NCBI GenBank assembly: GCA_016220095.1 | Contig: JACRIJ010000048.1 | Span: 5,296 to 69,295, forward strand | Reading direction: 5' to 3' | DNA: 64,000 nt | DNA from: Planctomycetota bacterium | GTDB lineage: Bacteria > Planctomycetota > MHYJ01 > JACQXL01 > JACRIJ01 | In this document: piece after piece, positions 42,701-62,074 of the stretch | Layout: every line of letters starts with the position of its first letter | Position numbering within the stretch: the stretch's first letter is position 1 | The notes under the pieces: model-generated | Seen by the model: only the letters and a program-made list of their open reading frames with translations | Databases searched by the model: none | What the model was told of the DNA's origin: nothing | Position numbers and translations under genes: made by a program

Positions 42701-45700
42701 GCCACGCCGCTATTGAAGTTGCTTCCGGATATCGTGCACGAAGTGCCGCCTGTCACAAAGCCGTTATCAGGGCTGACAGACGTTATCTGCGGCACGGGCA
42801 GTGAATTATACGTATATCCGTTGAACAAAATATAATATTGCGCGTCGGTATTGACCACTTTAATTGAAACTGCACCGGCGTTTCCGGCAGGGGAAGAACA
42901 TGTTATGGTATTTGCATCCACGCGTACAACGCTCGCGGCCGCGTTAGCGCCGAAAAATACGGTTACGCCGCTGTTGAAATTGTTTCCCGCGATGGTGCAC
43001 GAGGTGCCGCCTGCCATAAGGCCGTTATCCGGGGTGATGGAAGTTATCTGCGGCGCCGGCGGCGCGTTGTATGTAAAGCCGTTAAACAGCAGGTCATATT
43101 GCGTGTCCGGATTGACGACCTTGACGGGAACTGCGCCGATACTGCCTGCCGGCGAGGAGCACGTAATGGAGGTGGAATCCACCCATGTTACAAGCAATGC
43201 CGGATTGGCGCCGAAGAACACGGTTGCGCCGTTTTTGAAATCCGTGCCCGTGATAGTGCATGGCGTATTTCCTGCGACATCGCCGTTATCAGGCGCTATG
43301 GAAATTATGTTCGGCATGGCTACGGGCTGGAACGTAAAACCGTTCGTAAGGGTTCCGGCAAGAGTGGAGGGATTGGTAACAACGACATTCACTCCTCCTA
43401 TGGTGCCGGACGGCGTGGTGCACGTAATAGACGTGCTGTTTACAACAGTTACGCCGGTAGCGCTGTTCGCGCCGATTTTCACCGTCGCGCCGGAGACGAA
43501 ATTAGTGCCTGTGATTGTCACAGAATCGCCGCCGTCGGAAGTGCCCGTATTCGGGGCTATTGATGAAACCGTGGGGCTGTTGGCGTAAACAAAGCCGTTA
43601 GTAAGAATATTATACTGTGTATCGGGATTTACGACTTTTATGTCATATGTGCCGGCGCTTTTTGCAGGCGCGGTAAAGGTCAGTGAAGAAGAACTGACGA
43701 ATGTCACGCCGGAGATGGAAGTAGTCCCGAAGAAAACGGAACAGCCGGAGACAAAATTCGTGCCTGAAATGGCGACAGAAGCGCCGCCGGCGATATCGGA
43801 TGCGGACGGAGCCGCAGAAGTTACGGAAGGCGCCGGGTCTGTGAAATACGTGAAACCGTTTGTCAATGACGCAGACTGCGGACCGGGAACTGTTACGGTA
43901 ACGGTCGCGTTTCCCGCGGCTCCTGAAGGCGCAGTGCAGGTTATTGTCAAAGCATTAACGACAATGATATTTGTCGCGAGGACTCCGCCGAAAGTGACCG
44001 TCGTGGCGGGATTGTCAATGAAATTAGTTCCCGTTACGGTAACGTTGGTTCCGCCGGTTGACGGTCCCTGGTTTGGCGAAACCGAGACAACCGTTATAGG
44101 AGTAGAAACCGTATATCTCCAGAAAGAGTAATTCGTATTACTGCTTCCGGCTATGGCAAAAATTGAGCCGTTGTAGTAGTTCAAGGATGCGCCGTCGTAG
44201 AAATAACCGAGATCTGCCGCAGACGCGTCGTCCCAAGTATTCAGGCTTATGGTGTACCTGTAATACCCCAGAGAACCGTTGCCGGCGACGGCAAAAATGT
44301 AATCGCCTGTTCCGGTGCATGCAAGCGAACCGCCTATGTTGACAGTACCCGGGAGATTAGCGCGTGCCAGCCAGGAATCTCCGGAAATAGAATATCTCCA
44401 GAACTCATTTACTCCGGAGCCGCGCAATACATAAATATAATCGCCTGTGCCGGGATATGCCATATCCGCCCCGTTTCCAGGAACATTGGTTATCGGAGTC
44501 CGGACGTCCCAGCTATTGGTTGCGATGGTATATCTCCAGAAATCATTAACACTTCCCTGGAGCAAATAAACATAAGTGCCTGTCGCGGTCATTGCCGCGC
44601 CGGTATTCACTAATCCCGGAACCGGTGCCATGGAAGTCCACGTGTTAAGGGATATTGAATACCTGTAGAAATCTGTTGTATTAGAACAGCGGGCGGCGTA
44701 AAGATAATCGCCTGTGCCCGGATAAGCTATTGCCCCTGCGGTAGCAATAGCCGCGGGCGTGCTTGCAAGGAATTTCCACGTATTGGTGCTGATATCATAG
44801 GCATTGAAATAAGAAGTGCTGGCTCCCCTCAGCGCATAGATGGAAGAACCCGCAATCTCGGAATCGCCGCCTGTGCCAGCCGTGAAATTTGTCTGGGAAA
44901 TGGAATTCCAGCTTAATCTTGAAGTGGAGAATCTCCATAATTCCTGAGTATTGGCGGCCCTGAAGGCATAGATGTAATCTGAATTCCCTATGGATACGAG
45001 GGTGGCATTGGTGCTTATTGTATTGGGAGGATACGATGTAGCCTGCCAATTCTGATTAATCAGGGAATATCTCCAGAAAGATTGATTGCCATTCCCCTGG
45101 AAGGCATACAGGTATTCGCTGTCGGAATTATGGAATTGCAAATAGCCGCCTGCGACAACATTGCCCGGCGCGGATGCTAATACCGTCCAGGTGTTGCCGG
45201 AAATGGAATATCTCCAGAAATCAGCCGTGGTACTGCCGTGGAAAGCGTAGATATAATCCCCTGAGCCGGGGTACGCGAGATAGCCGCCGTCAGTTACGGT
45301 AGCAGGCGCAGATGCCGGCGTGGTATTGTCCCATGTATTGGTGCCCGTGTCATAGGTCATAAATTCCGATTGGGTATTGCCCTGGAAGAAATACAGTTTA
45401 GTGCCCACGCGAACGGCGGAGGCGCCCGCGCTTAAATTTACCGGCGCATCCGCGTAAGAGGCGTCATTCCAGGAATTGCCTGAAATGGAATATCCCCAGA
45501 AAGTAGCCGTGTTGTTGGCTCTCGCGCAGTATATGATATCGCCGGACCCCGGATACAAAAGAACGGAGCCGGTGGATATTGTTCCCAATGTAACGGCAAG
45601 GGTCGAGTGCGTATTTGTAGAAATAATATATTTAGAAAAAGTTGTTGAATTGTTGCCATTCGTATAATATATCGTATCATTGCCGTCCCATTGAGCCCTT

Positions 45701-48700
45701 CCGCCCGTGCTCATCACCGCAGGCAAGAGAGCGGGTTCGGTCCAGACATTTGCCTGGATGTATCTGAAAGCGGCCCTGAGTGTGGCGGTTTGCACGTCGG
45801 GATTAGTAACCGTTACAGAAGCGGCCCATGCGGTGCCGGCGGGCGTCAGGCAGGTCAGCGTTTGCGAATTCACAAACGCAACGCTGGTCGCGGATGTGCC
45901 GCCGATTGTAACTGTTGCGCCGTTTACGAAATTATAGCCTTTGATTGTAACGGACGATTTTCCTGCGGACACGCCTTCTTCCGGAGTAATGGATGTTACA
46001 TAAGGTTTACTTACGAATGTCACGGCATTAGAAGAGGTATAAGTCAGGGAACCGTTACTGACCGTAATATCCGACAGTCCCAGAACGCCTGCGGGAACGA
46101 CGACCTCCAACCTCGTTGAATTTATAAAAGTAACGCTTGTGGCATTTATGGCGCCAAATTTGACCGTTGTAGTCGGGGTGAAATTAGAACCGTAGATTAC
46201 AATAGTCATTCCTCCGTTTACGGGAATGGTTGTCGGGAAGACCGTTGTAATTGAAGGAGTAAGGCCTTCAAAAAGAAGCCTGTATCTCGCAAAATACAGG
46301 CCGCCGCCTCCATTTATAGCGTACAAGTAATTATCATTTCCGTATGTCAAAAATCCGCCGGTTGAATAGGTGTAAGGGGCCGATGAAAGCGAAACCCAGG
46401 ACTTTGTAGTCTTGTAATATCCCCAAAACCCGGTCGTTGTATTGCCTTGAAGCGCATATATTACATCGCCATATCCGGGCCATGCCATGTCAAAACCGGA
46501 CGTCTCAGCAAATGGAACCGATGACTCTATAAGCCAGGTATTTGAAGCAATGTCATACGAATAGAAACCGGTCTGGGAATTACCAACCGACAAATATATT
46601 TTTCCATTGCTGTAACACAAAGCGCCGCCGTCGTTTACCACAAATGGCGTGGTTGCGAGGGATTCCCACTTGTTCTGGGATATGACATATCTCCAGAAAT
46701 ATAGTGTTCCGCCGCCGCCCGTCGCGTAGATGTAATCGCCGGTTCCGGGATAAACCGAATCCGCTCCGTAGCCGACAATGGTTGGCGCATCAGTCAAAGA
46801 AGTCCAAACGTTCGTTGTCATGTTGAATTTTGCAAATGAACTACTGCCATAACCTCTTAGGGCATATAAATAAGTAGAATCCACCTGCGTTAAGGATGAT
46901 CCATAATAAGTTCCCCAGGGCGTGGCGGTCATGGTAGTTGCGGTGTTGGCTGTGATATCATATTTATAAAAATTGGTTCCACCCTGCCCGTACATTACGT
47001 AAATCTTTTTATCGGTTGTTCCGCATATATTGCCATAGCTCATAGAACTGGGAATCGGCGTAAGCTTGGACCATTTCTGGCTCGCGAGATAATACTTGAA
47101 AACATATTGAGTGCTCTGAGCCGGGATCAGCATAATGGCATTCAGGCTTGCGATGTAGGCCATTTTGCCGCATTGATATACGCCTACAGGCGTGGCGGTC
47201 AAACTTGTCCAGCTGTTGCCTGTAATATTATAACGGGCAAAACCCGTAGTGTTGGAGCCCTGCGTACAGTAAATATACCCGTCGTTACCGTATGCCTGAT
47301 AAGCGCCGTAATAAGTTGAAAACGGCATATTTGCCATTTGCAGCCAGGAGTTTCCGGAGATGGAATACCTGTAATAGGTATTCGTATTATTGTGAGTCAC
47401 ATATATAAAATCGCCTGAACCCGGATAGTTGCCGCTTGCGCCGTAATTAAAAGTTGCGGTGAAATTAGTCATTGCCAGCCAGCTGTTGCCGGAAATCGAA
47501 TACCTTAGAAACGTATTCGTGTTGCCTCCCGGGGCGCAATAGATAAAGTCGCCCGAACCGGGATAAACCAGAAAACCTCCCGTAGTTACGTTACTGGTGC
47601 AGGCAGTCATTGTGTCCCAGGTATTTGGTCCGATATTGTAACGGTAAAATGTACTGGTGCCGCCGCCTCTTGTCAGATACAAGGCGGTTGTTGAAGGCAC
47701 ATATACCATATCAGCCCCGATGCCGCCTGTTGTTGTTACGGGCGTAAGTAATGTATAGGCATTTGAGGTAAACGAATATTTATAGAAGGCTGAAGAACTT
47801 CCAGGATAAGGCCAGAAATACGTGAAATCCCCTGTGCCGGGATAGCAGAGCGTTAAACCCTGATAGGCATTTACGGGAAGCAGGGCCATCTCGTTCCATG
47901 AATTCACGGCTTCAAATTCAAAATAATTCGTCAATGTCGCGTTCTGTAAATCCGGATTGGCGACGGTCAGGCTGGCAATCGCAAGGCCGGACGGCGCGGT
48001 GCAGGTTATCGTAAAGGGGTCAACTACCAGTACTCCCGTGGCGGAAACGCCTCCGACAGATACGGTTGCCCCGCTCACAAAATTTGCCCCGGTTATGGTA
48101 ATCGGAGTACCGCCGCTTGCCACCAAAATCTGCGGCGTTGCGGAAGTCAAATACGGTTTGCTATCGTAAGTGAAGCCGCCGACAAGGGTGGACGTCTTGG
48201 TATTAGGATTCGTTATTACCACATTGGCGGCGCCTGCTGAACCGGCCGGAATCGTCACAGTCAGGCTGATAGAACTGTTGAAAACTATGTTGGTCGCGGC
48301 CTGGCCTCCAAATGTGAGCGTAAGCCCGGGATAAAAACCGGTACCTGTAATAGACACCGGACTGTTGCCGGAAGTAGGCCCTGTTGATGGATTAATCAGC
48401 GATATTGACGGCGTTGCGCCTGAATCCAAGACGCAGTATTTCGTGATGTACGGGGTGTTATTGCCGACTAATGAATAAATATAATCATTTACTCTCGCAA
48501 AATCAGTAACCTGATAGTATTTGAAAGGCGTATTGGTCAGCGTTGTCCATGCATTAGTGGTTGTGGAATAATACCACCAGGCGTGATTTGTCGTGCTTGA
48601 CGGGCCGTAATTTGCACCGGTGGCATAAATTTTATCGCCAAACCCGGCATAAACCATTTGAGGGTAATACCCGAAAGTTGACGGGGCATTTGCCAATTGC

Positions 48701-51700
48701 GTCCATGCATTCAGGGAAATAGAATACTTATAAAAAGTCTGCTGGCCGTTTGAACCGAACATGTACATGAAATCGCCCGTGCCGGGATAATGCAGGCCGC
48801 CTCCGTAGTTAAGAGTGGCGGATAAAGAGGACATTACAGACCATGAATTTGAAGTAATATCATATTTATAGAAATCGCTGGAACTGCTGGCCCGCGCGCA
48901 ATATATGGCGTTTGCGGACGATACGTAAGCCAATCCGGCGCCGTAAGACGCGGTGTTTGGAAGCGCTGTCATCGTGTCCCAGGTATTTGTGGAAATAGTA
49001 TATCTGTAAAATGTTGTTGTCGCCGTTCCGCGCATCAAATAAATCTTATCCGTGCCGGCCAGCACCATATCCGCGCCGTAATTCACGGTGGCAGGTATGG
49101 CGGCTAAGGTTGCCCAGGTATCGGTGGCAGTGGTGTATTTCCAGAAATTCGTAGTGCTTGCGCCGCCGCATACGTATAAATTGGCTGAACCGTCATACAA
49201 TATATTTCCGCCTTCAGCTATTGATGCCGGGGCCGGGGCCACATCAACCCAGTTGTTTCTGGAAACGGAATACCTTACAAAATCCCTCTGGTAATATGCG
49301 GGCATGGAGTACAGATAATCGGAATTGGAAATGGAAAGCAATGTCCCGCCTTCCCAGTTATACGACATTGGCTGAGGTTGCATGGTTTCCCACGAATTAA
49401 GCCCCATGGAATAACGATAGAAGTACGCGCCGCTGCTAGTGGCATTTCCGCGTAATAGATAAAAGTAATTTGTCCCGTACGCCCATGCAAGCGAACCGCC
49501 GTACCGGATGGTGTTGGGCGTTGATGGCAACGTCTCCCACGTATTGCCGGCAATGGAATATCTCCAGAAATCCGTAGTATTGGCCCCGCGCGTGGCATAC
49601 AGGTAATCGCCCTGGCCGGGCCATACCAGGTCGCATCCGCCTTCCTGCTCGTTCGGGGTGCTGGCCAATTGGGCCCATGTATTGCCGGAAATTGAATATC
49701 TCAACAAGAGCTTTCTGTTTGCCGAAATACTGGCGTGGGTGCCTAATGTCGCGTAAATGTAATCGCCGCCTAACCATGCCATTGAACATCCGTAGTCCGC
49801 CAGGTATGTCGCGTTAAGAACTGTCGTATCCTGGGGGTCAACATCGTTCCACGTATCAGTAGATATCTTGTATCTCCAGAAGATGCCGGTCTGATTGCCC
49901 CTGAAGACATAGATATAGTCACCGTTCGCGAAACACATGCTTGAAGCGCGGTATAATAACGTTCCGCCGGGCGTGGTCGCGCAAACCGTCCATACGTTTG
50001 TTGACAGGCTGTATTTCCATAAAGTCGTAGTATTGTCTCCACGCAAGGCATAAATAGTATCTGCGCCGTCATAAGCCATTGCCGAGCCGTCATTAAACCA
50101 ATTGGGCGCGCAGGCAGGCGTATCCCACCCGTCCACGCTTACATATCTGAAAGCAGTTTTTAAAGAACCGTTGAAAGGGCCGGGATTGGTTACGGTTAGA
50201 TCCACGGACCAGGTATTGCCGGTTCCGGCCGGTGTCGCGCAGGTAATGCTCGTTGAGCTGACCCTGACGACGTTAGTGGCGGAATTCGCCCCGAATTTAA
50301 CCGTCACTCCAACCGCAAAATTCTCGCCTGTTATGGTAGCGTTAGTGCCGCCGGTATAAGAACCCGAATATGGCGATACTGATTTTACGATAGGATCGGT
50401 CTTGTAGGTAAACCCTCCTGTAAGCGTATTGGAAAGAGGGCCTGGGTTGGTAACAACCACATTCGCGGCCCCGGCTACTCCGGCCGGTGCGGCCGCGCTG
50501 ATTAAACCGGTATCCAGGAAAGCAACGTTCACAGCCGCAACGCCGCCGATAGTAACCGTTGCAGTCGGATAAAAATTCTTGCCGATTATCTTAACCGTGG
50601 TCCCGCCGGCCGTGCCGCCTTCATTAGGGAATATGGCTTCAGCCGTTGGAGTTGAACTTTCAAAAACCTTGTATCTGAAGAAAGATGCCGTGGTATTGCC
50701 GGCAAAACAATAGATATAATCGTTGGCGAATGTTAACGATATTCCGACATTATTAAACGTAAATGGCGAAGAACCCATTGTTGCCCATGTGTTGGTCGTC
50801 ATATTGTAACGATAGAATTCGGCCGTATTCTGGCCTCTCGTGGCATAAAGATAATTGCCGTATTTAGGATATATGAGCGCTCCACCGGACCCTATTGTGG
50901 CCGGAGTGGAAGCGAGAACGCTCCAAGTATTGCCGGAAATGGAATATCTCCAGAATTCGGAAGTGGCCGCGCCGCGCAGGGCATAGATATAATCTCCGGT
51001 GCCCGGATACGAAAGCGATGCGCCGGCCTCAACTACATTAGGCGTAAGCGCAAGCTGAGACCATGAATTTCCGGAAATGGAATATCTCCAGAAACTTGAG
51101 AAACTGCCGCCGCGAAAGGCGTAAATGAAATCGCCGGTTCCTGGATATAACAAAAATCCGCCGGTAGTTACCGTTCCGGGCGTTGAAGTCATGGTGGACC
51201 ATGAATTTGAGCCGACCGTGTATTTCCAGAAATTAGATGTGGAATTGCCGGCCATTACAAAAAGATTGGTGCCGTCGGAACAGATAGCGCCGCCTGCGCC
51301 GATAGTCCCGGTCGGCTGGGCCAGGCCAGTATTCCATGTGCCCGCGGACGTGTCATAGCGCCAGAAATCCGCCGTAGTACTGCCTCTAAGCGCATAAATA
51401 TAATTTCCCGAGCCGTAATACGACAATGAACCGCCTGCAGTGATTGTATTGGGCGCGGCAGGAATTGCACCCCACCTGTTATTGCTGATGGAATACCTTA
51501 AAACAGTATAACCCCAGTTTCCCTGATTAAAATAGAACCAATCAGTGCCGGGAACGTACACTATATCTGCGCCGCCTGCTGTGGATATCGGCACATTTGC
51601 CATATCGGACCAGGTTGTGGTGGAAATCCGATATTTTTTGAAACCATTGCTCGGCCAATTCGTACAATAAGCGTAAACATAATCGGGGTCAGACCCGAAT

Positions 51701-52416
51701 ATAAGGTCGCCTTCCGTTGTTACCGCTGTAGGCGAAACAGTGAGAGCCCCCCAGGAATTTCCGGAAATGGAATATCTCCAGAAATCCGTGGTATTGGCGC
51801 CGCGCAAGGCATAGATGTAATCGCCGGAACCCGGATACGCCAGAGCGCCGCCGGTATTGACAGCGCCGAGAGCAACCGCCTGCGCGCCTGACCATGTGTT
51901 ACTGCCAATATCATAATAGTAAAACGCGGTGCCATTGCCTATAAGGCAGTATATTCTGTTATTGGAACTGACATAAACAACATCGCTTCCGGCACTGACT
52001 GCCACGGGTATGGCCGCGCACGGAGACCATGCATTGCCGGATATGGAGTATTTTTGAAATCCTGTGGCGCCATCCCCCTGCGTCGCGTAAATAAAATCTC
52101 CACCGCCCCAGCACATAGAACCGTAACTGGGAATGCCCCAGGGACTGCCGGTAACCGAGGTGTAAGTTCTACTGCTGATAGTGTACTTGTAAAATTGAGA
52201 ACCGCCGCCGCCTTGCGTTATAAATAATGTGTCCGCTCCGGCCGCGGTTATTTGTGAACCGTAGTACGTTTGCAGAGGACAGGACGGCGGTTCTTCCCAC
52301 CCTACCTGCGCGTAAAGCTCTGCGGGAATAAAAAAGGCCATTGCAAAAATAAATAATGCAATAACCCATTTGTTTGTAATCGCCGCTGTTTTAAGATTTT
52401 TTGTGCGCATAAACAT
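39784..52416 (-). CDS. Giant cell-surface protein (4210 aa) built from beta-propeller blade repeats, many IPT/TIG domains, PKD-like domains and a C-terminal membrane anchor
   Basis: A signal peptide is followed by about 50-aa blade repeats (GxGDYIYAxRGxxxxxFWRYSISGNSW). More than 20 IPT/TIG units are present (e.g. PNEGGTAGGTTVKIIGKNFYPTATVTIGG). Five PKD-like units follow (ANAGSDKT...YQWSQVSGP). The C-terminus is a hydrophobic helix plus RRQ. Confidence 0.85.
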   Translation of the reverse strand: MFMRTKNLKTAAITNKWVIALFIFAMAFFIPAELYAQVGWEEPPSCPLQTYYGSQITAAGADTLFITQGGGGSQFYKYTISSRTYTSVTGSPWGIPSYGSMCWGGGDFIYATQGDGATGFQKYSISGNAWSPCAAIPVAVSAGSDVVYVSSNNRIYCLIGNGTAFYYYDIGSNTWSGAQAVALGAVNTGGALAYPGSGDYIYALRGANTTDFWRYSISGNSWGALTVSPTAVTTEGDLIFGSDPDYVYAYCTNWPSNGFKKYRISTTTWSDMANVPISTAGGADIVYVPGTDWFYFNQGNWGYTVLRYSISNNRWGAIPAAPNTITAGGSLSYYGSGNYIYALRGSTTADFWRYDTSAGTWNTGLAQPTGTIGAGGAICSDGTNLFVMAGNSTSNFWKYTVGSNSWSTMTSTPGTVTTGGFLLYPGTGDFIYAFRGGSFSSFWRYSISGNSWSQLALTPNVVEAGASLSYPGTGDYIYALRGAATSEFWRYSISGNTWSVLASTPATIGSGGALIYPKYGNYLYATRGQNTAEFYRYNMTTNTWATMGSSPFTFNNVGISLTFANDYIYCFAGNTTASFFRYKVFESSTPTAEAIFPNEGGTAGGTTVKIIGKNFYPTATVTIGGVAAVNVAFLDTGLISAAAPAGVAGAANVVVTNPGPLSNTLTGGFTYKTDPIVKSVSPYSGSYTGGTNATITGENFAVGVTVKFGANSATNVVRVSSTSITCATPAGTGNTWSVDLTVTNPGPFNGSLKTAFRYVSVDGWDTPACAPNWFNDGSAMAYDGADTIYALRGDNTTTLWKYSLSTNVWTVCATTPGGTLLYRASSMCFANGDYIYVFRGNQTGIFWRYKISTDTWNDVDPQDTTVLNATYLADYGCSMAWLGGDYIYATLGTHASISANRKLLLRYSISGNTWAQLASTPNEQEGGCDLVWPGQGDYLYATRGANTTDFWRYSIAGNTWETLPSTPNTIRYGGSLAWAYGTNYFYLLRGNATSSGAYFYRYSMGLNSWETMQPQPMSYNWEGGTLLSISNSDYLYSMPAYYQRDFVRYSVSRNNWVDVAPAPASIAEGGNILYDGSANLYVCGGASTTNFWKYTTATDTWATLAAIPATVNYGADMVLAGTDKIYLMRGTATTTFYRYTISTNTWDTMTALPNTASYGAGLAYVSSANAIYCARASSSSDFYKYDITSNSWSVMSSLSATLNYGGGLHYPGTGDFMYMFGSNGQQTFYKYSISLNAWTQLANAPSTFGYYPQMVYAGFGDKIYATGANYGPSSTTNHAWWYYSTTTNAWTTLTNTPFKYYQVTDFARVNDYIYSLVGNNTPYITKYCVLDSGATPSISLINPSTGPTSGNSPVSITGTGFYPGLTLTFGGQAATNIVFNSSISLTVTIPAGSAGAANVVITNPNTKTSTLVGGFTYDSKPYLTSATPQILVASGGTPITITGANFVSGATVSVGGVSATGVLVVDPFTITCTAPSGLAIASLTVANPDLQNATLTNYFEFEAVNSWNEMALLPVNAYQGLTLCYPGTGDFTYFWPYPGSSSAFYKYSFTSNAYTLLTPVTTTGGIGADMVYVPSTTALYLTRGGGTSTFYRYNIGPNTWDTMTACTSNVTTGGFLVYPGSGDFIYCAPGGNTNTFLRYSISGNSWLAMTNFTATFNYGASGNYPGSGDFIYVTHNNTNTYYRYSISGNSWLQMANMPFSTYYGAYQAYGNDGYIYCTQGSNTTGFARYNITGNSWTSLTATPVGVYQCGKMAYIASLNAIMLIPAQSTQYVFKYYLASQKWSKLTPIPSSMSYGNICGTTDKKIYVMYGQGGTNFYKYDITANTATTMTATPWGTYYGSSLTQVDSTYLYALRGYGSSSFAKFNMTTNVWTSLTDAPTIVGYGADSVYPGTGDYIYATGGGGTLYFWRYVISQNKWESLATTPFVVNDGGALCYSNGKIYLSVGNSQTGFYSYDIASNTWLIESSVPFAETSGFDMAWPGYGDVIYALQGNTTTGFWGYYKTTKSWVSLSSAPYTYSTGGFLTYGNDNYLYAINGGGGLYFARYRLLFEGLTPSITTVFPTTIPVNGGMTIVIYGSNFTPTTTVKFGAINATSVTFINSTRLEVVVPAGVLGLSDITVSNGSLTYTSSNAVTFVSKPYVTSITPEEGVSAGKSSVTIKGYNFVNGATVTIGGTSATSVAFVNSQTLTCLTPAGTAWAASVTVTNPDVQTATLRAAFRYIQANVWTEPALLPAVMSTGGRAQWDGNDTIYYTNGNNSTTFSKYIISTNTHSTLAVTLGTISTGSVLLYPGSGDIIYCARANNTATFWGYSISGNSWNDASYADAPVNLSAGASAVRVGTKLYFFQGNTQSEFMTYDTGTNTWDNTTPASAPATVTDGGYLAYPGSGDYIYAFHGSTTADFWRYSISGNTWTVLASAPGNVVAGGYLQFHNSDSEYLYAFQGNGNQSFWRYSLINQNWQATSYPPNTISTNATLVSIGNSDYIYAFRAANTQELWRFSTSRLSWNSISQTNFTAGTGGDSEIAGSSIYALRGASTSYFNAYDISTNTWKFLASTPAAIATAGAIAYPGTGDYLYAARCSNTTDFYRYSISLNTWTSMAPVPGLVNTGAAMTATGTYVYLLQGSVNDFWRYTIATNSWDVRTPITNVPGNGADMAYPGTGDYIYVLRGSGVNEFWRYSISGDSWLARANLPGTVNIGGSLACTGTGDYIFAVAGNGSLGYYRYTISLNTWDDASAADLGYFYDGASLNYYNGSIFAIAGSSNTNYSFWRYTVSTPITVVSVSPNQGPSTGGTNVTVTGTNFIDNPATTVTFGGVLATNIIVVNALTITCTAPSGAAGNATVTVTVPGPQSASLTNGFTYFTDPAPSVTSAAPSASDIAGGASVAISGTNFVSGCSVFFGTTSISGVTFVSSSSLTFTAPAKSAGTYDIKVVNPDTQYNILTNGFVYANSPTVSSIAPNTGTSDGGDSVTITGTNFVSGATVKIGANSATGVTVVNSTSITCTTPSGTIGGVNVVVTNPSTLAGTLTNGFTFQPVAMPNIISIAPDNGDVAGNTPCTITGTDFKNGATVFFGANPALLVTWVDSTSITCSSPAGSIGAVPVKVVNPDTQYDLLFNGFTYNAPPAPQITSITPDNGLMAGGTSCTIAGNNFNSGVTVFFGANAAASVVRVDANTITCSSPAGNAGAVSIKVVNTDAQYYILFNGYTYNSLPVPQITSVSPDNGFVTGGTSCTISGSNFNSGVAVFFGANAASNVTRVDSNTITCFSPAGNAGTVTIKAVNTDTQYGLLTNGFTYNALPSPQITSVSPTHGPIAGGTSLTISGNNFSNGLIVKIGPNNATSVTVVNSSTITCLTPAVAVASTVNVTVTNPDSQAVTLTAGFSYDLSTAPAIALISPASGVSSGGTSITVSGYNFQNGLTLKIGSSSATSVTVVSTSAVTAVTPNGTLGQANVTITNPDGQSYTSQNGFTYISPPTITSIAPNNGSVAGNIFFTITGTNFESGSTITFGGSPATGVTFVSSTVFTGYTPSGYTGKVNVVITSPSQAAVTLANGYEYTGAVPAANAGSDKTSDPSVITLDGTKSTNTTGTKTGIIYQWSQVSGPEVVLNSSSTSTPSFTGKATGEYVFQLIIKEGAISSAPDSVTIKINNVSPVAVISNEKTTTVTEGDLVTLDAGGSYDANGDALTYNWTFHPNLDSTATDKPVFDTTGLSGVFNFSLVVSDGINLSSPADVTIAVQDTNMPPLACAGPDRNAVTGTTVYLDGSTSRDDDGNIKTYLWQYLSGPSETLTLNSSNGAIAAFVPATTGVYYFSLDVTDDDNAPGMTSYVSVYANSPSNHMPSAVITTSATRYTLGQTVTLDAGFSSDPDNDALTYKWELLQTENALSGSQAGTDKILSFTAAETGTLIYKLSVNDGTAWGVPDEITIYVVPQTADEFPVAEAFVSPETDPDGDSIVNMYDMPVVTLIGYTSTGAGSLSFLWQQKTGISVTLDDAASSAPKFAPPARGLYEFQLTVTDQNSVQAYDNVTVIIDDFDSVLNPQGNNLPVANAGDSISTKPGKQVALDGSGSYDSDTDSDGVAGYSNGLLFSWTQLEGPVIELYNADTPEPSFTPTVNGNYKFKLTVSDAVDYSAVSYVTVVVTNKTTQPDPGTGGQDPVVTPDPVTPNPQVSDNSSDSGSKLTQPACFVTQMASQDNRASYIYMLLTLLGLVAVLLFRRQ

Positions 52417-52440
52417 TTCTCCAATTTATTTTCGCGTTAC

Positions 52441-52576
52441 GAAAAACCGCACCACTGCGAAGAAGGATGCGGGACAGCACGTAAGGGAACTGCCCTGCCG
52501 CACTCTTCCCCGGCCTATCCCGTTGTTGTCCGGAACAGGCCGTTCAGTGCATGTGCAGAGATTGTGTTGTGTTTCA
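52441..52576 (-). ncRNA. Conserved structured 3' element downstream of small-protein paralog 1, possibly an attenuator in front of the giant gene
   Basis: It is about 85% identical to 53851-53961. It forms two hairpins with compensatory and wobble changes between copies, and a T5 tract follows. Confidence 0.4.
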
Positions 52577-52792
52577 TTATAATTCCGTCTTCTGCCAGCC
52601 AACAAGGTATCCGTCCGTAAAAATATAGCGTTCTTTCATGTTGCCGCTGACATGCGAATAAATCCATTCCTCATGCCTCGCGGAATTCCTGTTGCTGGCC
52701 GTCCTGACCTCTTTGGCCATGGGCTTGCCGCGTACGCATAAAATGTCCTCGGTCGTAAACGGCGGACAACATATTTTTAAGTCTTTATTCAT
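52577..52792 (-). CDS. Small 71-aa protein, paralog 1, sigma-54-dependent, unknown function
   Basis: The sequence is MNKDLKICCPPFTTEDILCVRGKPMAKEV...YIFTDGYLVGWQKTEL. It is about 80% identical to the 53962-54180 product. It has the RBS GGAGG. Confidence 0.6.
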   Translation of the reverse strand: MNKDLKICCPPFTTEDILCVRGKPMAKEVRTASNRNSARHEEWIYSHVSGNMKERYIFTDGYLVGWQKTEL

Positions 52793-52841
52793 ATATATTC
52801 CTCCAGAAATAATGCAAAACCTTCTCTATAATATAGTATAA

Positions 52842-52857
52842 CGCAAATGCAGTGCCA
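52842..52857 (-). promoter_or_regulatory. Sigma-54 promoter of small-protein paralog 1
   Basis: The minus strand reads TGGCACtgcatTTGC with the GG-N10-GC spacing. It lies about 50 nt upstream of the ATG. Confidence 0.65.
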
Positions 52858-52968
52858 TAGCGCTTAATAAGGCAAAAGCAGGCGCTATCTCTAACACGCT
52901 GTTTGTCAACATGTTGTGGCGGCGGCAAAGGGCCGGTTTTTAGGGGTTTTACGGCAGATGTGCTAAAA

Positions 52969-52997
52969 TTCATACAGATGGATAATTTTTCATACAG
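52969..52997 (-). promoter_or_regulatory. Putative enhancer/UAS direct repeat TTCATACA-N13-TTCATACA
   Basis: It lies about 115 bp upstream of the sigma-54 promoter. The same motif sits at the same distance upstream of paralog 2. Confidence 0.45.
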
Positions 52998-53850
52998 AAG
53001 CGTTGAAATGCAGGGTAACCAGGATATGCCGGCGTTATTTTGCAGCAAGGGACGATTTTTACAACAGATTGAACAGATTAAACGGATTGACGACTACGAC
53101 TAAACAACGAAACAATCCGGACGATGAAACGAAACCACAGATTTTACAAGATTAACACACACATTCGCTCTGCGCAATGCAGGCAAGATTGCGACGACGT
53201 ATCCTGGGTATCCTGTACATCCGATGCAGATAACGGCGCGTTTACGAACGGTTATTTACATGGCAAAACATATATACTTAGCGTGCTTAACGGCCTTTGC
53301 GGGCAAAACGTCGTTCGCTCTAACGGCGACGATTCAACCGCAAAGCAAGTTTACCCTGAGCGGAGCGAAGGGCAAAGTACGCTAAGACGATGCGAATATC
53401 CGTCGTCTTTGCGTTCTTTGCGGTCTTAGCGGTTTATTTCGGTCGTCGTACGTCCGAGCCGCCGACGAACGCAATAAGCCGCAGAGGACGTCAAGAGCGC
53501 CAAGTGACTTGACGAAAGTAGAAGTTGAGACTTAAGACTATAAAGCAGCATAGCCGCAACCAAAACGACTACACGATTATTTGCCACGAAGGCACGAGGT
53601 CACGAAGAATGACGAACGACTATGCCAATTAGCCACAGAGCGCACAGGGAGCGCGGAAAACCATATGACATTCCAATAAATTACTTGAAAAAAGGTGTTC
53701 CCCTTCGTAAAATTCTAAAATCTTCCAATCTTGGAATTTTCTAATCTTGGAATCCGTAAAGTGATTTTCGACATTCGCCCCGGCACCCGGATCTTGGCTC
53801 TCGGCCGTCGTTCTCCCTCCTTCGTTTTCTCTTCTTCCTCCTCATAAAAG

Positions 53851-53961
53851 AAGAGTGCAGGACAGCCCGTAAGAGAACTGCCCTGCCTTGATCTTCCCCG
53901 GCCTATTCCGTTGTTGTCCGGAATAGCCCGTTTAGTGTATGTGTAGAGGTTGTGTTGTGTT
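53851..53961 (-). ncRNA. Conserved structured 3' element downstream of paralog 2
   Basis: One hairpin is CTATTCCG-gacaacaa-CGGAATAG and a second is GCAGGGCAG...CTGTCCTGC. It is homologous to 52441-52576. Confidence 0.4.
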
Positions 53962-54180
53962 TTACTGTAATTCCGTCTTCTGCCAGCCTACAAGATATCC
54001 GTCCGTGAAAATGTATTTTTCTTTCGTATTGCCGTTAACGTGCGAATAAATCCATTCCTCCTGCTTTGCGGAATTCCTGTTATTGATAATCCTGACCTCT
54101 TTGGCCATGGGTTTGCCGCGTACGCATAAAACATCCTCGGTCGTGAACGGCGGACAAGATACTTTTGATTCTTTGTTCAT
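53962..54180 (-). CDS. Small 72-aa protein, paralog 2, sigma-54-dependent, unknown function
   Basis: The sequence is MNKESKVSCPPFTTEDVLCVRGKPMAKEVRIINNRNSAKQEEWIYSHVNGNTKEKYIFTDGYLVGWQKTELQ. It has the RBS GGAGG. Confidence 0.6.
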   Translation of the reverse strand: MNKESKVSCPPFTTEDVLCVRGKPMAKEVRIINNRNSAKQEEWIYSHVNGNTKEKYIFTDGYLVGWQKTELQ

Positions 54181-54228
54181 GATTCCTCCGGAAACAATTC
54201 AAGATTCTCTCTGCTATTCTCTTTACAC

Positions 54229-54243
54229 GCAAAAATAATGCCA
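54229..54243 (-). promoter_or_regulatory. Sigma-54 promoter of small-protein paralog 2
   Basis: The minus strand reads TGGCATtatttTTGC with the GG-N10-GC spacing. Confidence 0.55.
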
Positions 54244-54346
54244 TTAAAATGAAAAAAACAAACACTGGCGTGTCGTTATAACGGATTGATTATCAAGGTG
54301 TTGCGTTGGCGGAAGAAGTGCGCCTTTCATACCTCAATTAAACGGG

Positions 54347-54374
54347 TGTAGTAAAATTCATACATGTGATTGAA
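54347..54374 (-). promoter_or_regulatory. Putative UAS direct repeat TTCATACA-N13-TTCATACC
   Basis: It is a homolog of 52969-52997. A third half-site lies at 54313. Confidence 0.45.
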
Positions 54375-54406
54375 TTTTCATACCTGGAAATGAATTTACA
54401 TAATTC

Positions 54407-56407
54407 TTAATTCGTTAAAGTAATTATTCCCAACAGGCGCAGTTTCCTGTACAATGCCGACCTGTTATATTTCAACGTTCGCGCGGCCTGGACGATATTG
54501 CCGTTGCATTTGCGGAGTGTTTCCGTCAGGACCTGCTTCTCAAACGCGTCTCTTAATTCCTTAAAACTCGTTTGGCCTGTTGTTTGCGCGGGTTCCTGTG
54601 GCCTGTAGGCGTTAATGACCGGAGAGAACATCGGTGTTTCTAACAGAACCGATTCCTTATTCAGGGCGCAGATCCTTTTTATTTCGTTTTTCATCTCGCG
54701 TATATTGCCCGGCCAATTATAATTGACGGCCGTTGTCAGGGCCTCCTGCGTGATTTCCATGGGCCGGCCGGTTAAAGTATATTTCACAAGGAAATATTTC
54801 AATAACAGCGTTATGTCTTCCCTGCGTTCCCTTAAGGCGGGCAGGTTGATCATGATGGCGTTTATCCGGTAATACAAATCCTCCCGGAACATTTTTTTTC
54901 TCACCAATTCTTCAATATTCTGATTGCTCGCGAAAATAAAACGCGTATTTATCGGGACCGGGTTTTCCGCGCCGATGCGCCAGACCTGTTTTTCTTCAAG
55001 CACGCGCAGTAATTTCTGCTGGATTTTCAAAGACATGTCCGCGATTTCGTCCATGAAAAGCGTGCCGTTGGAAGCCAGTTCAACGTAGCCTTTTTTGACT
55101 TCCACGGCGCCCGTGAACGCGCCTTTGGTATGGCCGAAAAGTTCGCTTTCCACGAGGGATTCCGTCAGGGCGCCGCAATTGAACGCCAGCCAATTCTCAT
55201 TCTTGCGCAGGCTGTTCTGGTGCAGGGCTGAGGCGATGAGTTCTTTGCCGGTGCCGGTTTCGCCCTGGATAAGCACGGGCAGGTCGGTCGGCGCGATTTT
55301 TTCCAGTATCTTGAAAACATCCTGCATTGCCGTGGACGTTCCTATGATATCCCTGTACGGCGAATTTTCATACTTCGTGTTTATCGTATTTTTCAACACC
55401 TCAGGCAGGTCAACTAAACCGGACTGTTTCTGCGGAGTCACCGACTGCAGACGACGGAAAAGCTGTTCCAATTCCCGGCTCTTTTCATAAAGCCAGACCA
55501 CGTCCAATTTGTTAAGGACCGGTTTGATCCTGCGTTCGGCCGCGGCGGCCTTATCGGGCATGTTCTTCAGGAAATAGCATTTGCTCAGAAGAAGTTCGGA
55601 TTCCGCGTAGATGTAAGTAATCTTTGCCTGCCCGGATTCTTTTTTTATGGCAAGCAGTTCTTTTATGGCCTCATCAACGTGCGATTCCAACATGTCCATG
55701 ACTGCAAAATGGATCCTGGCTTCAAGGGCGCCTGTCAGAAAATTCTTCTGGTTGCTGAAGTCCACGCATTCTTTAAAGACGGCCTTTGCCCCGGCATAGT
55801 CGTTGACCGCCATCAGGTATTCGCCCTTTAAATGATTGTGATCCAGCGGAAAAAATCCGAGACTGCTGTCGTCTTTGAAAGCGCCTAATTTATCGTAGAT
55901 GATATCCCTGACTTTCGGCAATTCCGCGTTATGGAGATAGCAATATGCGAGGCAGACGAACGTATAGATATACGTCATCTTATCCATAGGGAATTCGCCG
56001 TAGCCGTATTTTTCAAAGTAGTCCTCGGCCTTTTTGAGATTTTGGATTGCCGGGCCTATATTTTTCAGGAGCATGAGATTGCTTCCGATTTCGCAGGAAA
56101 CGTATACGCTCTTAGCCAATGGGAAATGGTGCCTGGACGCCAATAGAGAGGCCTTGTAATACATGTCAATCGCGCGTGAAAATTCTATGAGGTTGTAATA
56201 TATGCGGCCCATATTGCAATAGAATCCGAACTCCTTTTCCGGGCTGAAGGAGAGCAGTGGCATTTTTTTCAGGGCATCTTCCCCGCAGGCCTTTGCCTTC
56301 ACGAAGTTGCTTTCCCGTATGAATTGGGCTATAAGCCCGTCATAATAATCCAGAGTTTGGTTTTTCATAGGTTTGCTGTATTTTATCAATTGATTTCTGT
56401 TTGTCAA
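54407..56407 (-). CDS. Sigma-54-dependent transcriptional activator with an N-terminal TPR-like sensor domain and no receiver domain
   Basis: 666 aa. It carries GETGTGKE, ESELFGHTKGAFTGA and a C-terminal Fis-type HTH. The track start is a TTG codon, and an in-frame ATG at 56368 is the more likely start. Confidence 0.85.
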   Translation of the reverse strand: MTNRNQLIKYSKPMKNQTLDYYDGLIAQFIRESNFVKAKACGEDALKKMPLLSFSPEKEFGFYCNMGRIYYNLIEFSRAIDMYYKASLLASRHHFPLAKSVYVSCEIGSNLMLLKNIGPAIQNLKKAEDYFEKYGYGEFPMDKMTYIYTFVCLAYCYLHNAELPKVRDIIYDKLGAFKDDSSLGFFPLDHNHLKGEYLMAVNDYAGAKAVFKECVDFSNQKNFLTGALEARIHFAVMDMLESHVDEAIKELLAIKKESGQAKITYIYAESELLLSKCYFLKNMPDKAAAAERRIKPVLNKLDVVWLYEKSRELEQLFRRLQSVTPQKQSGLVDLPEVLKNTINTKYENSPYRDIIGTSTAMQDVFKILEKIAPTDLPVLIQGETGTGKELIASALHQNSLRKNENWLAFNCGALTESLVESELFGHTKGAFTGAVEVKKGYVELASNGTLFMDEIADMSLKIQQKLLRVLEEKQVWRIGAENPVPINTRFIFASNQNIEELVRKKMFREDLYYRINAIMINLPALRERREDITLLLKYFLVKYTLTGRPMEITQEALTTAVNYNWPGNIREMKNEIKRICALNKESVLLETPMFSPVINAYRPQEPAQTTGQTSFKELRDAFEKQVLTETLRKCNGNIVQAARTLKYNRSALYRKLRLLGIITLTN

Positions 56408-56745: not shown

Positions 56746-56819
<74 letters not shown>

Positions 56820-58932: not shown

Positions 58933-59100
58933 TTCTACAAAACGGATTTAAGATTTAAGACTTACGATGTAAGATTTTTTCGGCGTATCTTCATAAAATT
59001 TTAATTCTTAAATCCAAAATCTTAAATCTTCAGGCCTGCCCCCCTGCGTTTTTGACCCCGTTTTCAGACATCCCGATTTTTTGACCGAAGTAGAAAATTC

Positions 59101-62069: not shown

Positions 62070-62074
62070 CTCAG

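Follow-up and report, generated by a model that had tools for sequence, protein, structure and literature searches.

A lineage-specific sigma-54 cassette of uncultivated Planctomycetes, with a TPR-sensor activator and a small BLIP/BamE-like protein as its probable constant output

What is the role of a small gene that occurs twice beside a sigma-54 activator, each copy behind an apparent sigma-54 promoter of its own and one of them in front of the gene for a giant surface protein? This question is raised by a 64-kb stretch of DNA (the window) from an uncultivated groundwater planctomycete, in which all of the features named in the initial annotation were found on the minus strand at the positions it gave. 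Our analyses identify this locus as one copy of a lineage-specific sigma-54 cassette of uncultivated Planctomycetes from groundwater and similar samples, and the cassette is probably a sigma-54/activator module of which the small protein is the constant output. The circuit resembles familiar sigma-54 switches, and the 70-residue small protein is previously undescribed. The genes and repeats of the locus are as follows.

54407..56368, minus strand: gene for a receiver-less sigma-54 enhancer-binding protein, 653 aa if translation begins at the likely start, the ATG at 56368 (open reading frame to a TTG at 56407)
56380..56407, minus strand: sigma-70-like promoter match of the activator gene, TTGACA-16-TAAAAT with extended TG, 11/12, a consensus match only
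53962..54180, minus strand: small protein paralog 2, 72 aa, predicted BLIP/BamE-like fold, without a signal peptide
52577..52792, minus strand: small protein paralog 1, 71 aa, annotated as hypothetical protein HZA48_04675 of a Planctomycetes MAG
39784..52416, minus strand: giant surface-protein gene, 4210 aa, with a signal peptide, Kelch/TIG/PKD domains and a C-terminal transmembrane helix
53116..53847, no strand: repeat-rich spacer between the two small-gene units, without a convincing gene, carrying a dispersed intergenic motif
53061..53115, plus strand: first copy of a 55-nt direct repeat, which closely precedes the paralog 1 unit
56501-56555: 55-nt direct repeat, copy 2, upstream of the activator gene

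The two copies of the 55-nt repeat are 95% identical (chance expectation 0). In the spacer, a 101-aa plus-strand open reading frame was assigned to no family, and an Rfam search of this segment returned nothing.

The activator contains the domains Sigma54_activat (E 2e-66), AAA_lid_14 and HTH_8 and lacks a receiver domain; the Walker A motif (GETGTGKE) and the GAFTGA loop of its AAA+ domain are intact, as is its C-terminal Fis-type HTH. The first ~330 aa, which had been described as a TPR-like sensor, give weak TPR matches at the sequence level, and it is the predicted structure, a confident TPR superhelix (pLDDT 90), that bears out this description. The model is structurally closest to LGN, NprR with NprX, MalT domain III, and a peptide-bound phage Rap. 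These are ligand-enclosing TPR sensors, and the modelled superhelix is proposed to be a ligand-binding sensor, most likely for a peptide or a protein. The promoter match at 56380..56407, combined with a start at the ATG at 56368, would imply a very short leader.

The two small proteins are 82% identical (58/71, E 8e-48), in agreement with the earlier estimate of about 80%, and a homology search with the 71-aa protein recovered 49 representative clusters at 50% identity, so that these are not orphan open reading frames. The family spans at least 50% sequence divergence, belongs to no Pfam family (DUF2845 gives a weak match, below the Pfam threshold, in just 4 of 47 members) and has no sequence relative in the PDB. 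Judged from its dN/dS values (0.03 against an orthologue and 0.22 between the paralogs), the small protein is under purifying selection. The two cysteines that had been called conserved do not hold this status: in 47 family members, conservation is partial for the first and absent for the second. Structure prediction yielded a confident, globular, single-domain BLIP/BamE-like fold, a fold that serves protein binding and inhibition, and the closest folds are inhibitor and immunity proteins (viz. 3d4e, 3gmx, BtiO, and BLIP). Only 6-11 codons separate the upstream stop from the ATG of the small gene, which leaves no room for a signal peptide, and the protein should hence be cytoplasmic. No natural fusion of the small protein with a TPR activator was found; the true family members are all stand-alone proteins of 66-103 aa.

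The succession of an orthologous TPR activator, a sigma-54 promoter and the small gene is kept in 11 further, independent loci of Planctomycetes metagenomes. A -24/-12 motif precedes the small gene or its operon in 13 of 13 cases (the 11 relatives and the two paralogs of the window), against 0.02 expected. A search from the activator side found the small gene downstream in all five assessable loci, and a signal-peptide protein follows in the nine loci with enough readable downstream DNA. The domains of this cargo vary in every locus (viz. Kelch/TIG/PKD, Laminin_G_3/DUF2341, RCC1/fn3, DUF4082, and Big_1). In one relative (L015) an intrinsic terminator stands behind the small gene and the cargo has a sigma-70-like promoter of its own, and paralog 2 of the window has no downstream gene and a terminator-like hairpin at its end. 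Because these two copies are separate from any cargo and the cargo domains vary, the small protein is read as the core output. The recognition helix of the HTH is identical in L006, L008 and L011, which also have identical upstream sites, and different helices accompany different sites; these comparisons indicate that the upstream sites co-vary with the activator's recognition helix across loci. The initial proposal of a dedicated sigma-54 module with a TPR-sensor activator is thus supported by homologues, synteny, promoter recurrence and the co-variation of site and helix.

We prefer to regard the small protein as a partner of the regulatory machinery and not as a helper of any one cargo. The simplest form of this reading, a tentative one, is that the small protein could be a feedback ligand of the activator's TPR sensor. 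The first competing explanation, which we consider unlikely, is that the small protein serves the cargo as a cytoplasmic chaperone or export pilot, binding the large secreted protein (or just its signal-peptide region) until it is translocated, while the activator merely co-regulates both. It would account for the position of the small gene right before a large signal-peptide protein in most loci, often within 10-70 nt, and for the N-terminal pattern that several cargos share (signal peptide, Cys, K(S/T)GSS), and BLIP/BamE-like folds do bind proteins. However, it accords poorly with the locus-to-locus variation of the cargo domains, with the giant protein of the window, which lacks the shared pattern, with the transcriptional separation of paralog 2 and the L015 copy, and with L006, where an additional copy lies upstream of the activator; to our knowledge, Sec-exported proteins normally need no dedicated 70-aa chaperone.

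Slightly less probable still is a circuit whose real effector is the small protein itself, acting on a cytoplasmic target encoded elsewhere (e.g. as an inhibitor of an enzyme or regulator, in the manner of BLIP and immunity proteins), with the surface protein only one co-regulated output. The inhibitor-like nearest folds and the monocistronic copies are in keeping with this, and the strong ribosome-binding site and the stem-loop after the gene suggest expression above that of the downstream genes. In the neighbourhoods, however, the flanking genes vary from locus to locus and a third conserved partner gene is absent, and in L002 and L005, both from one MAG, each module has its own diverged small protein and its own diverged activator, a module-by-module divergence that points to a partner inside the module.

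The duplicated unit extends beyond the small genes and takes in a strongly conserved 3' element of 112 nt.

53848..53961, minus strand: conserved 3' element, copy 2, a G-free CA-rich tract and two hairpins, terminator-like
52465..52576, minus strand: conserved 3' element, copy 1, hairpin 1 intact and hairpin 2 weakened

A G-free tract of 33 nt, rich in C and A, follows both stop codons. In copy 2, hairpin 1 (12 bp) has the loop GACAACAA and the GC-rich hairpin 2 (12 bp, 53857-53886) is followed by ACTCTTCTTT; in copy 1, hairpin 2 has two mismatches and the T tract is lost, and the folding z-scores are -7.9 for copy 2 vs. -4.0 for copy 1. Copy 2 differs from L001, an orthologous contig, at 1 position in ~112 nt where dS is 0.19-0.36, and in both paralogs the element is more conserved than synonymous sites. 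An Rfam search with the element gave no match. From its sequence, the element looks like a terminator after paralog 2 that has been weakened after paralog 1.

These features might suggest that the small open reading frame acts mainly in cis, as a leader whose translation, in concert with the G-free tract and hairpins, controls the share of transcription that gets to the very long downstream gene by Rho-dependent or intrinsic attenuation, the peptide being secondary. The conservation of the element and the stem-loops found behind the small gene in several relatives agree with this explanation, which is nevertheless highly improbable given the strong purifying selection on the amino-acid sequence, the confident globular fold of so divergent a family, the lack of a gene downstream of paralog 2, and the near absence of space for an attenuator in L005, L020 and L021. 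Attenuation by the 3' element may exist as an added layer.

Paralog 1 does lie directly before the giant gene, as first noted. The encoded protein has a signal peptide, 15 TIG domains, Kelch propellers and PKD domains, and its C-terminus is a transmembrane anchor ending in RRQ, in which neither a known sorting domain nor a PEP motif was found. A simple consensus scan found no sigma-70-like promoter between paralog 1 and the giant gene, and in relatives the small and the large gene are often 10-70 nt apart or overlap; co-transcription is therefore favoured, and on these grounds we lean towards expression of the cargo by read-through from the small-gene promoter. The initial suggestion of read-through into this adhesin is thus retained in a restricted form, since the conserved hairpin element that intervenes probably makes it partial or regulated. 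Read-through could be low, as the double hairpin and a weak 5-bp hairpin with T5 (52447-52460) both stand in the way, and the giant gene might own a promoter missed by the simple scan.

The regulatory DNA upstream of the small genes comprises the following elements.

52843..52857, minus strand: TGGCACTGCATTTGC, sigma-54 promoter 50 nt ahead of the paralog 1 ATG
54229..54243, minus strand: TGGCATTATTTTTGC, sigma-54 promoter 48 nt ahead of the paralog 2 ATG, identical in L001
52969..52995, minus strand: upstream activator site of paralog 1, GTATGAA-N13-GTATGAA
54357..54383, minus strand: upstream activator site of paralog 2, GTATGAA-N13-GTATGAA, 100% kept in L001
54377-54403: degenerate third repeat near the upstream site of paralog 2
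54279..54291, minus strand: candidate IHF site AATCAATCCGTTA between the upstream site and promoter of paralog 2, kept in L001

On re-inspection, both paralogs have the reported promoters with the correct spacing (TGGCAC or TGGCAT-N5-TTGC) and the reported ribosome-binding site, GGAGG, 4-7 nt ahead of the ATG. The pattern TGGCAY-N5-TTGC has three matches in the 64-kb window against 0.44 expected, and the third precedes the flagellar rod genes flgB/flgC, beside a receiver-type sigma-54 activator and a histidine kinase; this third match is an internal positive control, showing the consensus to be in use in the organism. The direct-repeat upstream sites, said to lie about 110 bp upstream, precede the -24 element by 112 nt (paralog 1) and 114 nt (paralog 2); the described N13 spacing is correct for the 7-mer core (a 20-nt period), whereas for the 8-mer TTCATACA it is N12. 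A scan of the window found exact tandem sites at the two paralogs only, and these sites and the two promoters are the only such matches in their region. When the two paralog units are compared, the tandem sites, the -24/-12 element and the ribosome-binding site stand out as conserved islands in otherwise diverged upstream DNA, and these islands are intact in L001 despite an insertion of ~130 nt directly upstream of the paralog 2 site. A point against the proposed binding is that Fis-type HTH dimers usually target inverted repeats; the window-type site, known from three sequences only, is a direct repeat in which each GTATGAA is at best an imperfect palindrome (4-5/7). The candidate IHF site, which matches the consensus WATCAANNNNTTR, has a paralog 1 counterpart with one mismatch and is a weak lead. 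The regulatory architecture is thus very likely as proposed (activator, tandem sites and -24/-12 promoters), and the idea that these matches are due to chance, with ordinary sigma-70 promoters (such as the weak 9/12 match overlapping promoter 1 at 52830-52858) transcribing the genes and the activator regulating something else, is very improbable in view of the 13 recurrent promoters, the conserved islands and the co-variation of sites and helix.

Starting from these observed sequence features, conservation, synteny and predicted folds, we infer the following mechanism, in which the conjectural steps are binding of the activator to the repeats, dependence on sigma-54, read-through and, most of all, what the small protein targets. 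The activator would be produced from its own sigma-70-type promoter, and its TPR superhelix would sense a ligand and gate the AAA+ motor. The Fis-type HTH of the active protein would bind the two GTATGAA sites two helical turns apart, and from ~110 bp upstream the activator would remodel sigma-54 RNA polymerase at the two -24/-12 promoters. From promoter 2, the gene for small protein 2 would be transcribed monocistronically, up to the terminator-like hairpin, and promoter 1 would give small protein 1, with a fraction of transcripts passing the weakened hairpin element into the gene for the 4210-aa protein. The small protein would be the invariant output of the cassette and the secreted cargo its variable one.

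Several known systems share parts of this arrangement. In the PEP-CTERM PrsK/PrsR/PrsT system, surface-protein genes have long intergenic regions bearing an activator site and a -24/-12 sigma-54 promoter, and the system also has an activator of its own as well as a TPR protein (Haft et al., 2006; PMC1569441). In that system, however, the activator PrsR is a response regulator that has a receiver domain and comes with a kinase, and the TPR protein PrsT is a separate lipoprotein, whereas in the window the TPR region is fused to the activator and there is no kinase; its giant protein ends in a plain transmembrane helix instead of a PEP-CTERM signal, and a small cytoplasmic protein is added. Characterised members of the BLIP/BamE/OsmE/DUF2845/DUF4309 group are all exported (periplasmic, lipoprotein or secreted), whereas the window family has neither a signal peptide nor a lipobox context. 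The predicted structure of the sensor is similar to that of the peptide-binding TPR domains in NprR, Rap and MalT, but MalT itself is an ATPase of the STAND type that carries a LuxR-type HTH and acts at sigma-70 promoters, while the ATPase of the window activator is a sigma-54 AAA+ domain. The RRNPP regulators (viz. NprR-NprX, PlcR-PapR, Rap-Phr, and AimR-AimP) occur in Firmicutes or their phages, have an N-terminal HTH or a phosphatase as output and an exported pro-peptide as small product; the cassette of Planctomycetes differs from them in its sigma-54 AAA+ motor with a C-terminal Fis-type HTH and in its folded 70-aa domain without a signal peptide. In PspF-PspA and HrpS-HrpV, a small protein from the activator's own regulon controls the sigma-54 activator in trans. 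PspF lacks a sensor domain, and PspA, a coiled-coil, ESCRT-III-like protein, binds its AAA+ domain; the window activator differs in its 330-aa TPR sensor, and its small protein is BLIP/BamE-like, their interaction being hypothetical. What both systems have in common with the window is a receiver-less sigma-54 activator adjoining its target promoter and, as the first product of the operon, a small cytoplasmic protein that could feed back.

Our analyses provide strong support for a regulatory architecture in which an activator with a TPR sensor, tandem upstream sites and two sigma-54 promoters are combined with a constant small protein and variable surface proteins. The paralogs, promoters, tandem sites, activator and giant open reading frame (ORF) described in the initial annotation are all present where it had placed them. 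In the order of transcription, and all on the minus strand, the locus consists of a tRNA gene, a spacer, the activator gene, small gene 2, a second spacer, small gene 1 and the 4210-aa ORF (paralogs 1 and 2 being the products of small genes 1 and 2). The main features are as follows.

56745-56819, minus strand: tRNA-Arg(CCT), directly upstream of the cassette
Between the tRNA-Arg(CCT) and the activator gene: repeat-rich spacer
54407-56368, minus strand: activator gene, with an ORF that extends to a TTG at 56407
54229-54243, minus strand: sigma-54 promoter with canonical spacing, pointing at small gene 2
53962-54180, minus strand: small gene 2 (72 aa)
Between small genes 2 and 1: spacer of ~730 nt with no convincing gene
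52843-52857, minus strand: sigma-54 promoter with canonical spacing, pointing at small gene 1
52577-52792, minus strand: small gene 1 (71 aa)
39784-52416, minus strand: 4210-aa ORF, beginning 160 nt past small gene 1
19738-19752, minus strand: third sigma-54 promoter (TGGCACGCAGGTTGC), ~170 nt before flgB/flgC

The ATG at 56368 is the likely start of the activator, because a match to a sigma-70-like promoter (TTGACA-16-TAAAAT) covers positions 56380-56407. When the two paralog units are aligned, an identity of ~85% extends over 300 nt, viz. the coding region and ~112 nt past the stop codon, and their upstream DNA has diverged save for three islands: the GTATGAA-N13-GTATGAA repeat, the -24/-12 element and, at the ribosome-binding site, TTTC-GGAGGAAT. 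At 53061-53115 and again at 56501-56555 (plus strand) there is a direct repeat of 55 nt, its copies 95% identical; the first lies a short way upstream of the paralog 1 unit and the second a short way upstream of the activator gene, and they flank the segment carrying the activator and paralog 2 and may be a trace of how the second small-gene unit arose. A genomic island beside the tRNA was considered for the cassette and rejected, the GC content of the cassette (0.46-0.51) being that of the rest of the window. Beyond the tRNA-Arg(CCT) (57000-63000) the GC content falls from ~0.50 to 0.40 and the ORFs at 57067-57621 and 57826-58932 have no family match; an integrated foreign segment may lie on this far side of the tRNA (57-63 kb). 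Word-like repeats are abundant in the intergenic DNA of this lineage. One dispersed motif, CCTCGTGCCTTCGTGGC with its variants, made of words such as CTTCGTG and CACGAAG, is found in at least five intergenic regions where 0 are expected (26018, 32575, 32649, 37619 and 53583, also ~19950-19990), and again in an insertion (~960-1070) in L001, the orthologous contig. A MITE-like element (AACCCGTCAGTAAAC.GTGGCATT ... CCCAGCCATTTATGGCTGGG) occurs as an inverted pair at 37054 and 37265 (37054-37288), with a single further copy beside the tRNA at 56929 (56929-57000).

The pattern TGGCAY-N5-TTGC occurs three times in the 64 kb of the window, compared with 0.44 expected, and on re-inspection the spacing reported for the small-gene promoters is indeed present at both. 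The third copy serves as a built-in control that the organism uses the canonical sigma-54 consensus, since it precedes flgB/flgC in a flagellar cluster. This cluster (1288-19568), which the third promoter heads, includes fliF, fliG, fliI, fliK, flgE and flhB; the genes around the promoter lie at 18700-19568, 20137-21507 and 21589-22401 (all minus strand), and a receiver-type sigma-54 activator and a histidine kinase are located upstream of it. The region looks like a FlrBC/FleSR-type flagellar tier in a planctomycete. The presence in the window of two activators with GAFTGA-type domains, and of this promoter before flgB/flgC, is an indirect pointer to rpoN in the genome.

The activator of the cassette contains a Sigma54_activat domain (PF00158, E 1.8e-66, residues 354-520), a match to AAA_lid_14 and, at its C-terminus, HTH_8 (PF02954, E 1.4e-11, residues 621-657), and a receiver domain is absent. 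Walker A (GETGTGKE) and Walker B (LFMDEI) are intact, and the GAFTGA loop, the element of sigma-54 activators that contacts sigma-54, is present as GHTKGAFTGA and is invariant across 5 orthologues. With its AAA+ domain, Walker A/B and GAFTGA motifs and C-terminal HTH, the protein can be assigned from its sequence to the enhancer-binding proteins. Pfam matches to TPR are weak over the first 330 residues; a structure prediction built with nine homologues shows an all-helical superhelix of 15 helices (pLDDT 90), and this model is good evidence that the N-terminus is a TPR sensor. That the ligand would be a peptide or a protein is only a hint from the model, because TPR superhelices match one another generically. 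No NCBIfam equivalog reaches its cut-off for the activator, which is therefore a generic superfamily member with an unnamed N-terminus, and a search of the GTDB species-representative genomes with the TPR domain found no relatives.

The direct repeat noted upstream of each small gene is present, and the correction that it needs concerns its spacing: the 8-mer TTCATACA gives a spacer of 12 nt and not of 13 nt. In the form GTATGAA-N13-GTATGAA, the two sites (52969-52995 and 54357-54383) are the sole exact matches in the window; their distances to the -24 element downstream are 112 and 114 nt, respectively, within the ~80-150 bp typical of activator sites at sigma-54 promoters. This form is common to the window and L001, and another contig, L002, has TGTAGACT-N12-TGTAGACT with the same period of 20 nt. 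In three further contigs (L006, L008 and L011) the site consists of a pair of palindromes of 16 bp each, GTTACC.AAA.GTAAC and TTGACCATTTGGTCAA, at a distance of 21 bp. These classes of site track the HTH recognition helix of the activator, viz. YNRSALYRKLR in the window, LDRSGLYKKMR in L002 and YALSPFYRKMK in L006, L008 and L011. Of the evidence available, this co-variation argues most strongly that the repeats are where the activator binds. In L008 and L011 the upstream sites are intact despite the insertion of palindromic mobile repeats around them. These G/C-run repeats (e.g. CCCCCTT..AAGGGGG blocks) are intergenic and near the small gene (L008 2760-2860, 3060-3150 and 3460-3560; L011 3540-3640), and those of L008 lie in the 5' leader and past the stop codon, leaving the activator sites and promoter undisturbed.

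Comparison contigs from Planctomycetes metagenomes were gathered in two independent ways, from the small protein and from the TPR domain of the activator. The activator gene precedes the small gene on the same strand in all 10 comparison loci whose contig reaches upstream, and, starting from the activator, the small gene is present in 5/5 loci with enough downstream sequence. Complete activators in these relatives are ~650-685 aa long, are 47-51% identical to that of the window over their full length and, where the sensor ends, keep motifs such as RIKP.L.KLD.VWLYEK.RE. A -24/-12 motif is found in every one of 13 upstream windows of 250 nt (11 comparison loci and the two window paralogs), compared with 0.02 expected from shuffles. 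It precedes the small gene in 11 of these cases; in the other two, L005 and L021, the gene next to it is an additional one (thioredoxin-like or RmlA-like) that lies ahead of the small gene. One MAG (GCA_016207825.1) carries two cassettes, L002 and L005, which appear to be mutually insulated because their recognition helices, sites and small proteins differ. Between the sigma-54 promoter and small gene of L005 (5067-5978), ORFs of 58 aa and 235 aa share a frame, and only a TGA, in the context TCDC-TGA, stands between them, with a hairpin (GCAAGC-CGTGT-GCTTGC) shortly after it; the pair has the look of a thioredoxin-like selenoprotein of the CxxU type that the gene caller broke in two. L006 contains a second, divergent small-protein paralog (3117-3326, 69 aa, matching the family profile at E 6e-11), located upstream of the activator and directly after a gene for a HEAT-repeat protein; in the window, a 616-aa HEAT-repeat protein (37889-39739, minus strand) directly follows the giant gene.

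The small proteins encoded by the window are 82% identical to each other. A word-indexed protein search with one paralog returned only the protein itself (hypothetical protein HZA48_04675, from a Planctomycetes MAG) and one orthologue, and was too narrow to define the family. Homologues of this protein, which the initial annotation had been unable to place, are present: a profile search run exhaustively over 1.84 billion representatives (among 15 billion proteins) recovered 49 clusters. Three long proteins from this search (P0021, P0043 and P0046) were rejected as fusions, being lectin, Cna_B and other repeat proteins in which spurious partial matches had been summed; the other clusters are stand-alone proteins of 66-95 aa. 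The family alignment shows the signature (C)PPLT..DIL.LRGKP.AK, ~13 residues, EEW.Y....KE.Y.F.NG.LVGW, with P24, K27, W43, Y45 and F58 invariant. The two cysteines thought to be conserved do not hold up in this alignment, in which the first is conserved only in part and the second is not; the pair is thus a local feature. The family is absent from Pfam. DUF2845 (PF11006) matches paralog 1 below its 21-bit gathering threshold (15.5 bits, E 0.022), does not match paralog 2 and is weakly matched by only 4 of 47 family members; the sole mention of it found in the literature is unrelated. All family members with an organism name come from Planctomycetes MAGs and the proteins are labelled hypothetical in every named source; the family is rare. 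A back-translated pattern, RG(K/x)PxAK-13aa-EEWxY, representing one common spacing variant, has no match in the GTDB species-representative genomes, and the lineage seems to be absent from that set.

The predicted structure of the small protein has a BLIP/BamE-type alpha-beta fold, and no sequence relative was found in the PDB. From the upstream in-frame stop to the ATG there are only 6 and 11 codons in the small genes of the window, and the N-termini are short and polar across the family; hence the protein must be cytoplasmic. A misannotated envelope lipoprotein was rejected, because a signal peptide would not fit into the space available. A RiPP precursor or Cys-dependent peptide was likewise rejected, given the unconserved cysteines, the folded domain and the lack of maturation genes nearby, as was the immunity protein of a polymorphic toxin, since the small gene lies upstream and not downstream of the large genes, whose products end in anchors or ordinary domains. 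The dN/dS values (0.03 against the L001 orthologue, 0.22 between the paralogs) indicate that the small protein is under purifying selection.

A protein with a signal peptide follows the small gene in nine loci, viz. those with enough downstream DNA. The giant protein of the window has a signal peptide, Kelch propellers, 15 TIG domains and PKD domains, and ends in a transmembrane helix followed by RRQ; neither a PEP motif nor an NCBIfam sorting-domain match was found at its C-terminus. Elsewhere this secreted or surface protein (the cargo) is a Laminin_G_3/DUF2341 protein (843 aa and >2900 aa), an RCC1/fn3 protein (1123 aa), a DUF4082 protein (449 aa), a Big_1 protein (1802 aa) or an 856-aa protein with no domain match. 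Every cargo has a signal peptide, several being lipoprotein-like, and no common C-terminus or C-terminal sorting signal was found among them. Because the cargo differs from locus to locus, what stays constant in the cassette is the activator together with the small protein. Several cargos, among those of L006, L008, L010, L014, L015 and L020, share a Cys, basic residues and K(S/T)GSS after the signal peptide (e.g. ATKGCFKREKPSPQSGSS and LAPKSCAKQANKVKSGSS), a pattern which suggests lipoprotein-type processing and a common N-terminal linker and is not present in the giant protein. The L002 and L005 cargos (6813-8162 and 6276-8807, respectively), from one MAG, differ in their other domains and end in the same C-terminal domain of ~70 aa (TGDTFI.KGNFTNG.CYLNM..WQVTTT.KTYYIVYKLA.DIGGGQRAGV...DSSYLEFENATCVGVP).

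Both small genes are followed by a conserved 3' element, consisting of a C- and A-rich tract of 33 nt without G, a 12-bp hairpin with the loop GACAACAA, then GGGGAAGA and a second GC-rich hairpin. Its folding z-scores (-4.0 and -7.9) are far below those of shuffles. The element of paralog 2 differs from that of L001 at one position in ~112 nt, compared with a synonymous divergence of 0.19-0.36, which argues that it is under selection in its own right. An Rfam scan of 52000-57200 (E up to 1) matched neither the element nor the spacer and returned only the tRNA and a chance snoRNA match, and no further copies of the element were found in the window. In the copy behind paralog 2 the second hairpin has a stem of 12 bp with no mismatch, ACTCTTCTTT comes next, and the scan flags the structure as terminator-like; in the copy behind paralog 1 two mismatches interrupt this stem and the T tract is lost. 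These sequences fit a monocistronic paralog 2 and a paralog 1 that would let partial read-through reach the giant gene. A promoter scan found no sigma-70-like promoter between paralog 1 and the giant gene. Stem-loops past the small gene are also present in L002, L006, L008 and L015; in L015 a clear intrinsic terminator follows the small gene and the cargo has its own promoter. We suggest, as a suggestion only, that the G-free tract is a Rho loading site.

In the mechanism that we propose, the TPR-sensor activator would be made constitutively and would act from tandem sites two helical turns apart on two sigma-54 promoters, the small protein being the constant output and the surface proteins the variable one. 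Tentatively, the small protein may have its partner within the regulatory module, the simplest candidate being the TPR sensor, with feedback analogous to that of PspA on PspF. This reading is favored because the small protein stays constant across loci with different cargos, because it co-diversifies with the activator within one genome, and because stand-alone targets of the activator exist (paralog 2, L015), as does an extra copy beside the activator (L006). It is doubtful that the small protein acts as a chaperone or export pilot for the cargo, and similarly improbable that it inhibits an unlinked cytoplasmic target. A small gene acting purely in cis as a leader ORF is unlikely and is countered by the selection on the protein; chance as the source of the promoter and site matches is excluded in practice. 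The partner-in-module reading can be extended, at rather long odds, to a self-contained autoregulatory switch of an undescribed kind, in which the RRNPP/MalT-like TPR sensor of the activator would read the level of the activator's own product, the cytoplasmic BLIP-fold mini-protein, paralog 2 would tune the loop and the 3' element would be a valve on transcription into the 12.6-kb gene. If true, such a tuned loop would lead to bistable or pulse-like expression of giant surface adhesins.

These results add TPR to the types of input domain of sigma-54 activators, as well as a protein family with no Pfam entry. To our knowledge, this is the first cytoplasmic use of a fold otherwise known from exported inhibitors and envelope lipoproteins; we are also aware of essentially nothing on the control of very large planctomycete surface proteins, and of almost nothing on sigma-54 circuits beyond a few model phyla. 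The cassette is a compact and testable unit, comprising a single activator, a single defined DNA site, a single type of promoter and a single, invariant small product, and it recurs with orthogonal specificities, twice even in one genome. Its parts are of a size that allows them to be reassembled in a heterologous host bearing sigma-54, so that experiments on the proposed feedback and read-through do not depend on growing the organism in culture.

Our literature search found no description of the cassette, of this type of TPR-fused sigma-54 activator or of the small-protein family. In the PEP-CTERM/PrsR system, PrsR has a receiver domain and the cargo a PEP-CTERM signal, neither of which is found here, and the corresponding model (TIGR02915) scores 302.7 bits on the activator against a cut-off of 502.6, through the AAA+ and HTH part only. 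In RRNPP systems the small ORF paired with the receptor codes for a pro-peptide that carries a signal sequence and is exported, and the effector is an N-terminal HTH or a phosphatase, whereas here the small product is a folded domain with no signal peptide and the effector is a sigma-54 AAA+ domain with a C-terminal HTH_8. The BamE and SmpA_OmlA lipoproteins have in common with the small protein its predicted type of fold, but they possess a signal peptide with a lipobox and an envelope location, which the small protein lacks. Hence, the sigma-54/activator module belongs to a very well-known class, and its new elements are the type of sensor, a cytoplasmic product with the BLIP/BamE fold and the conserved 3' element.
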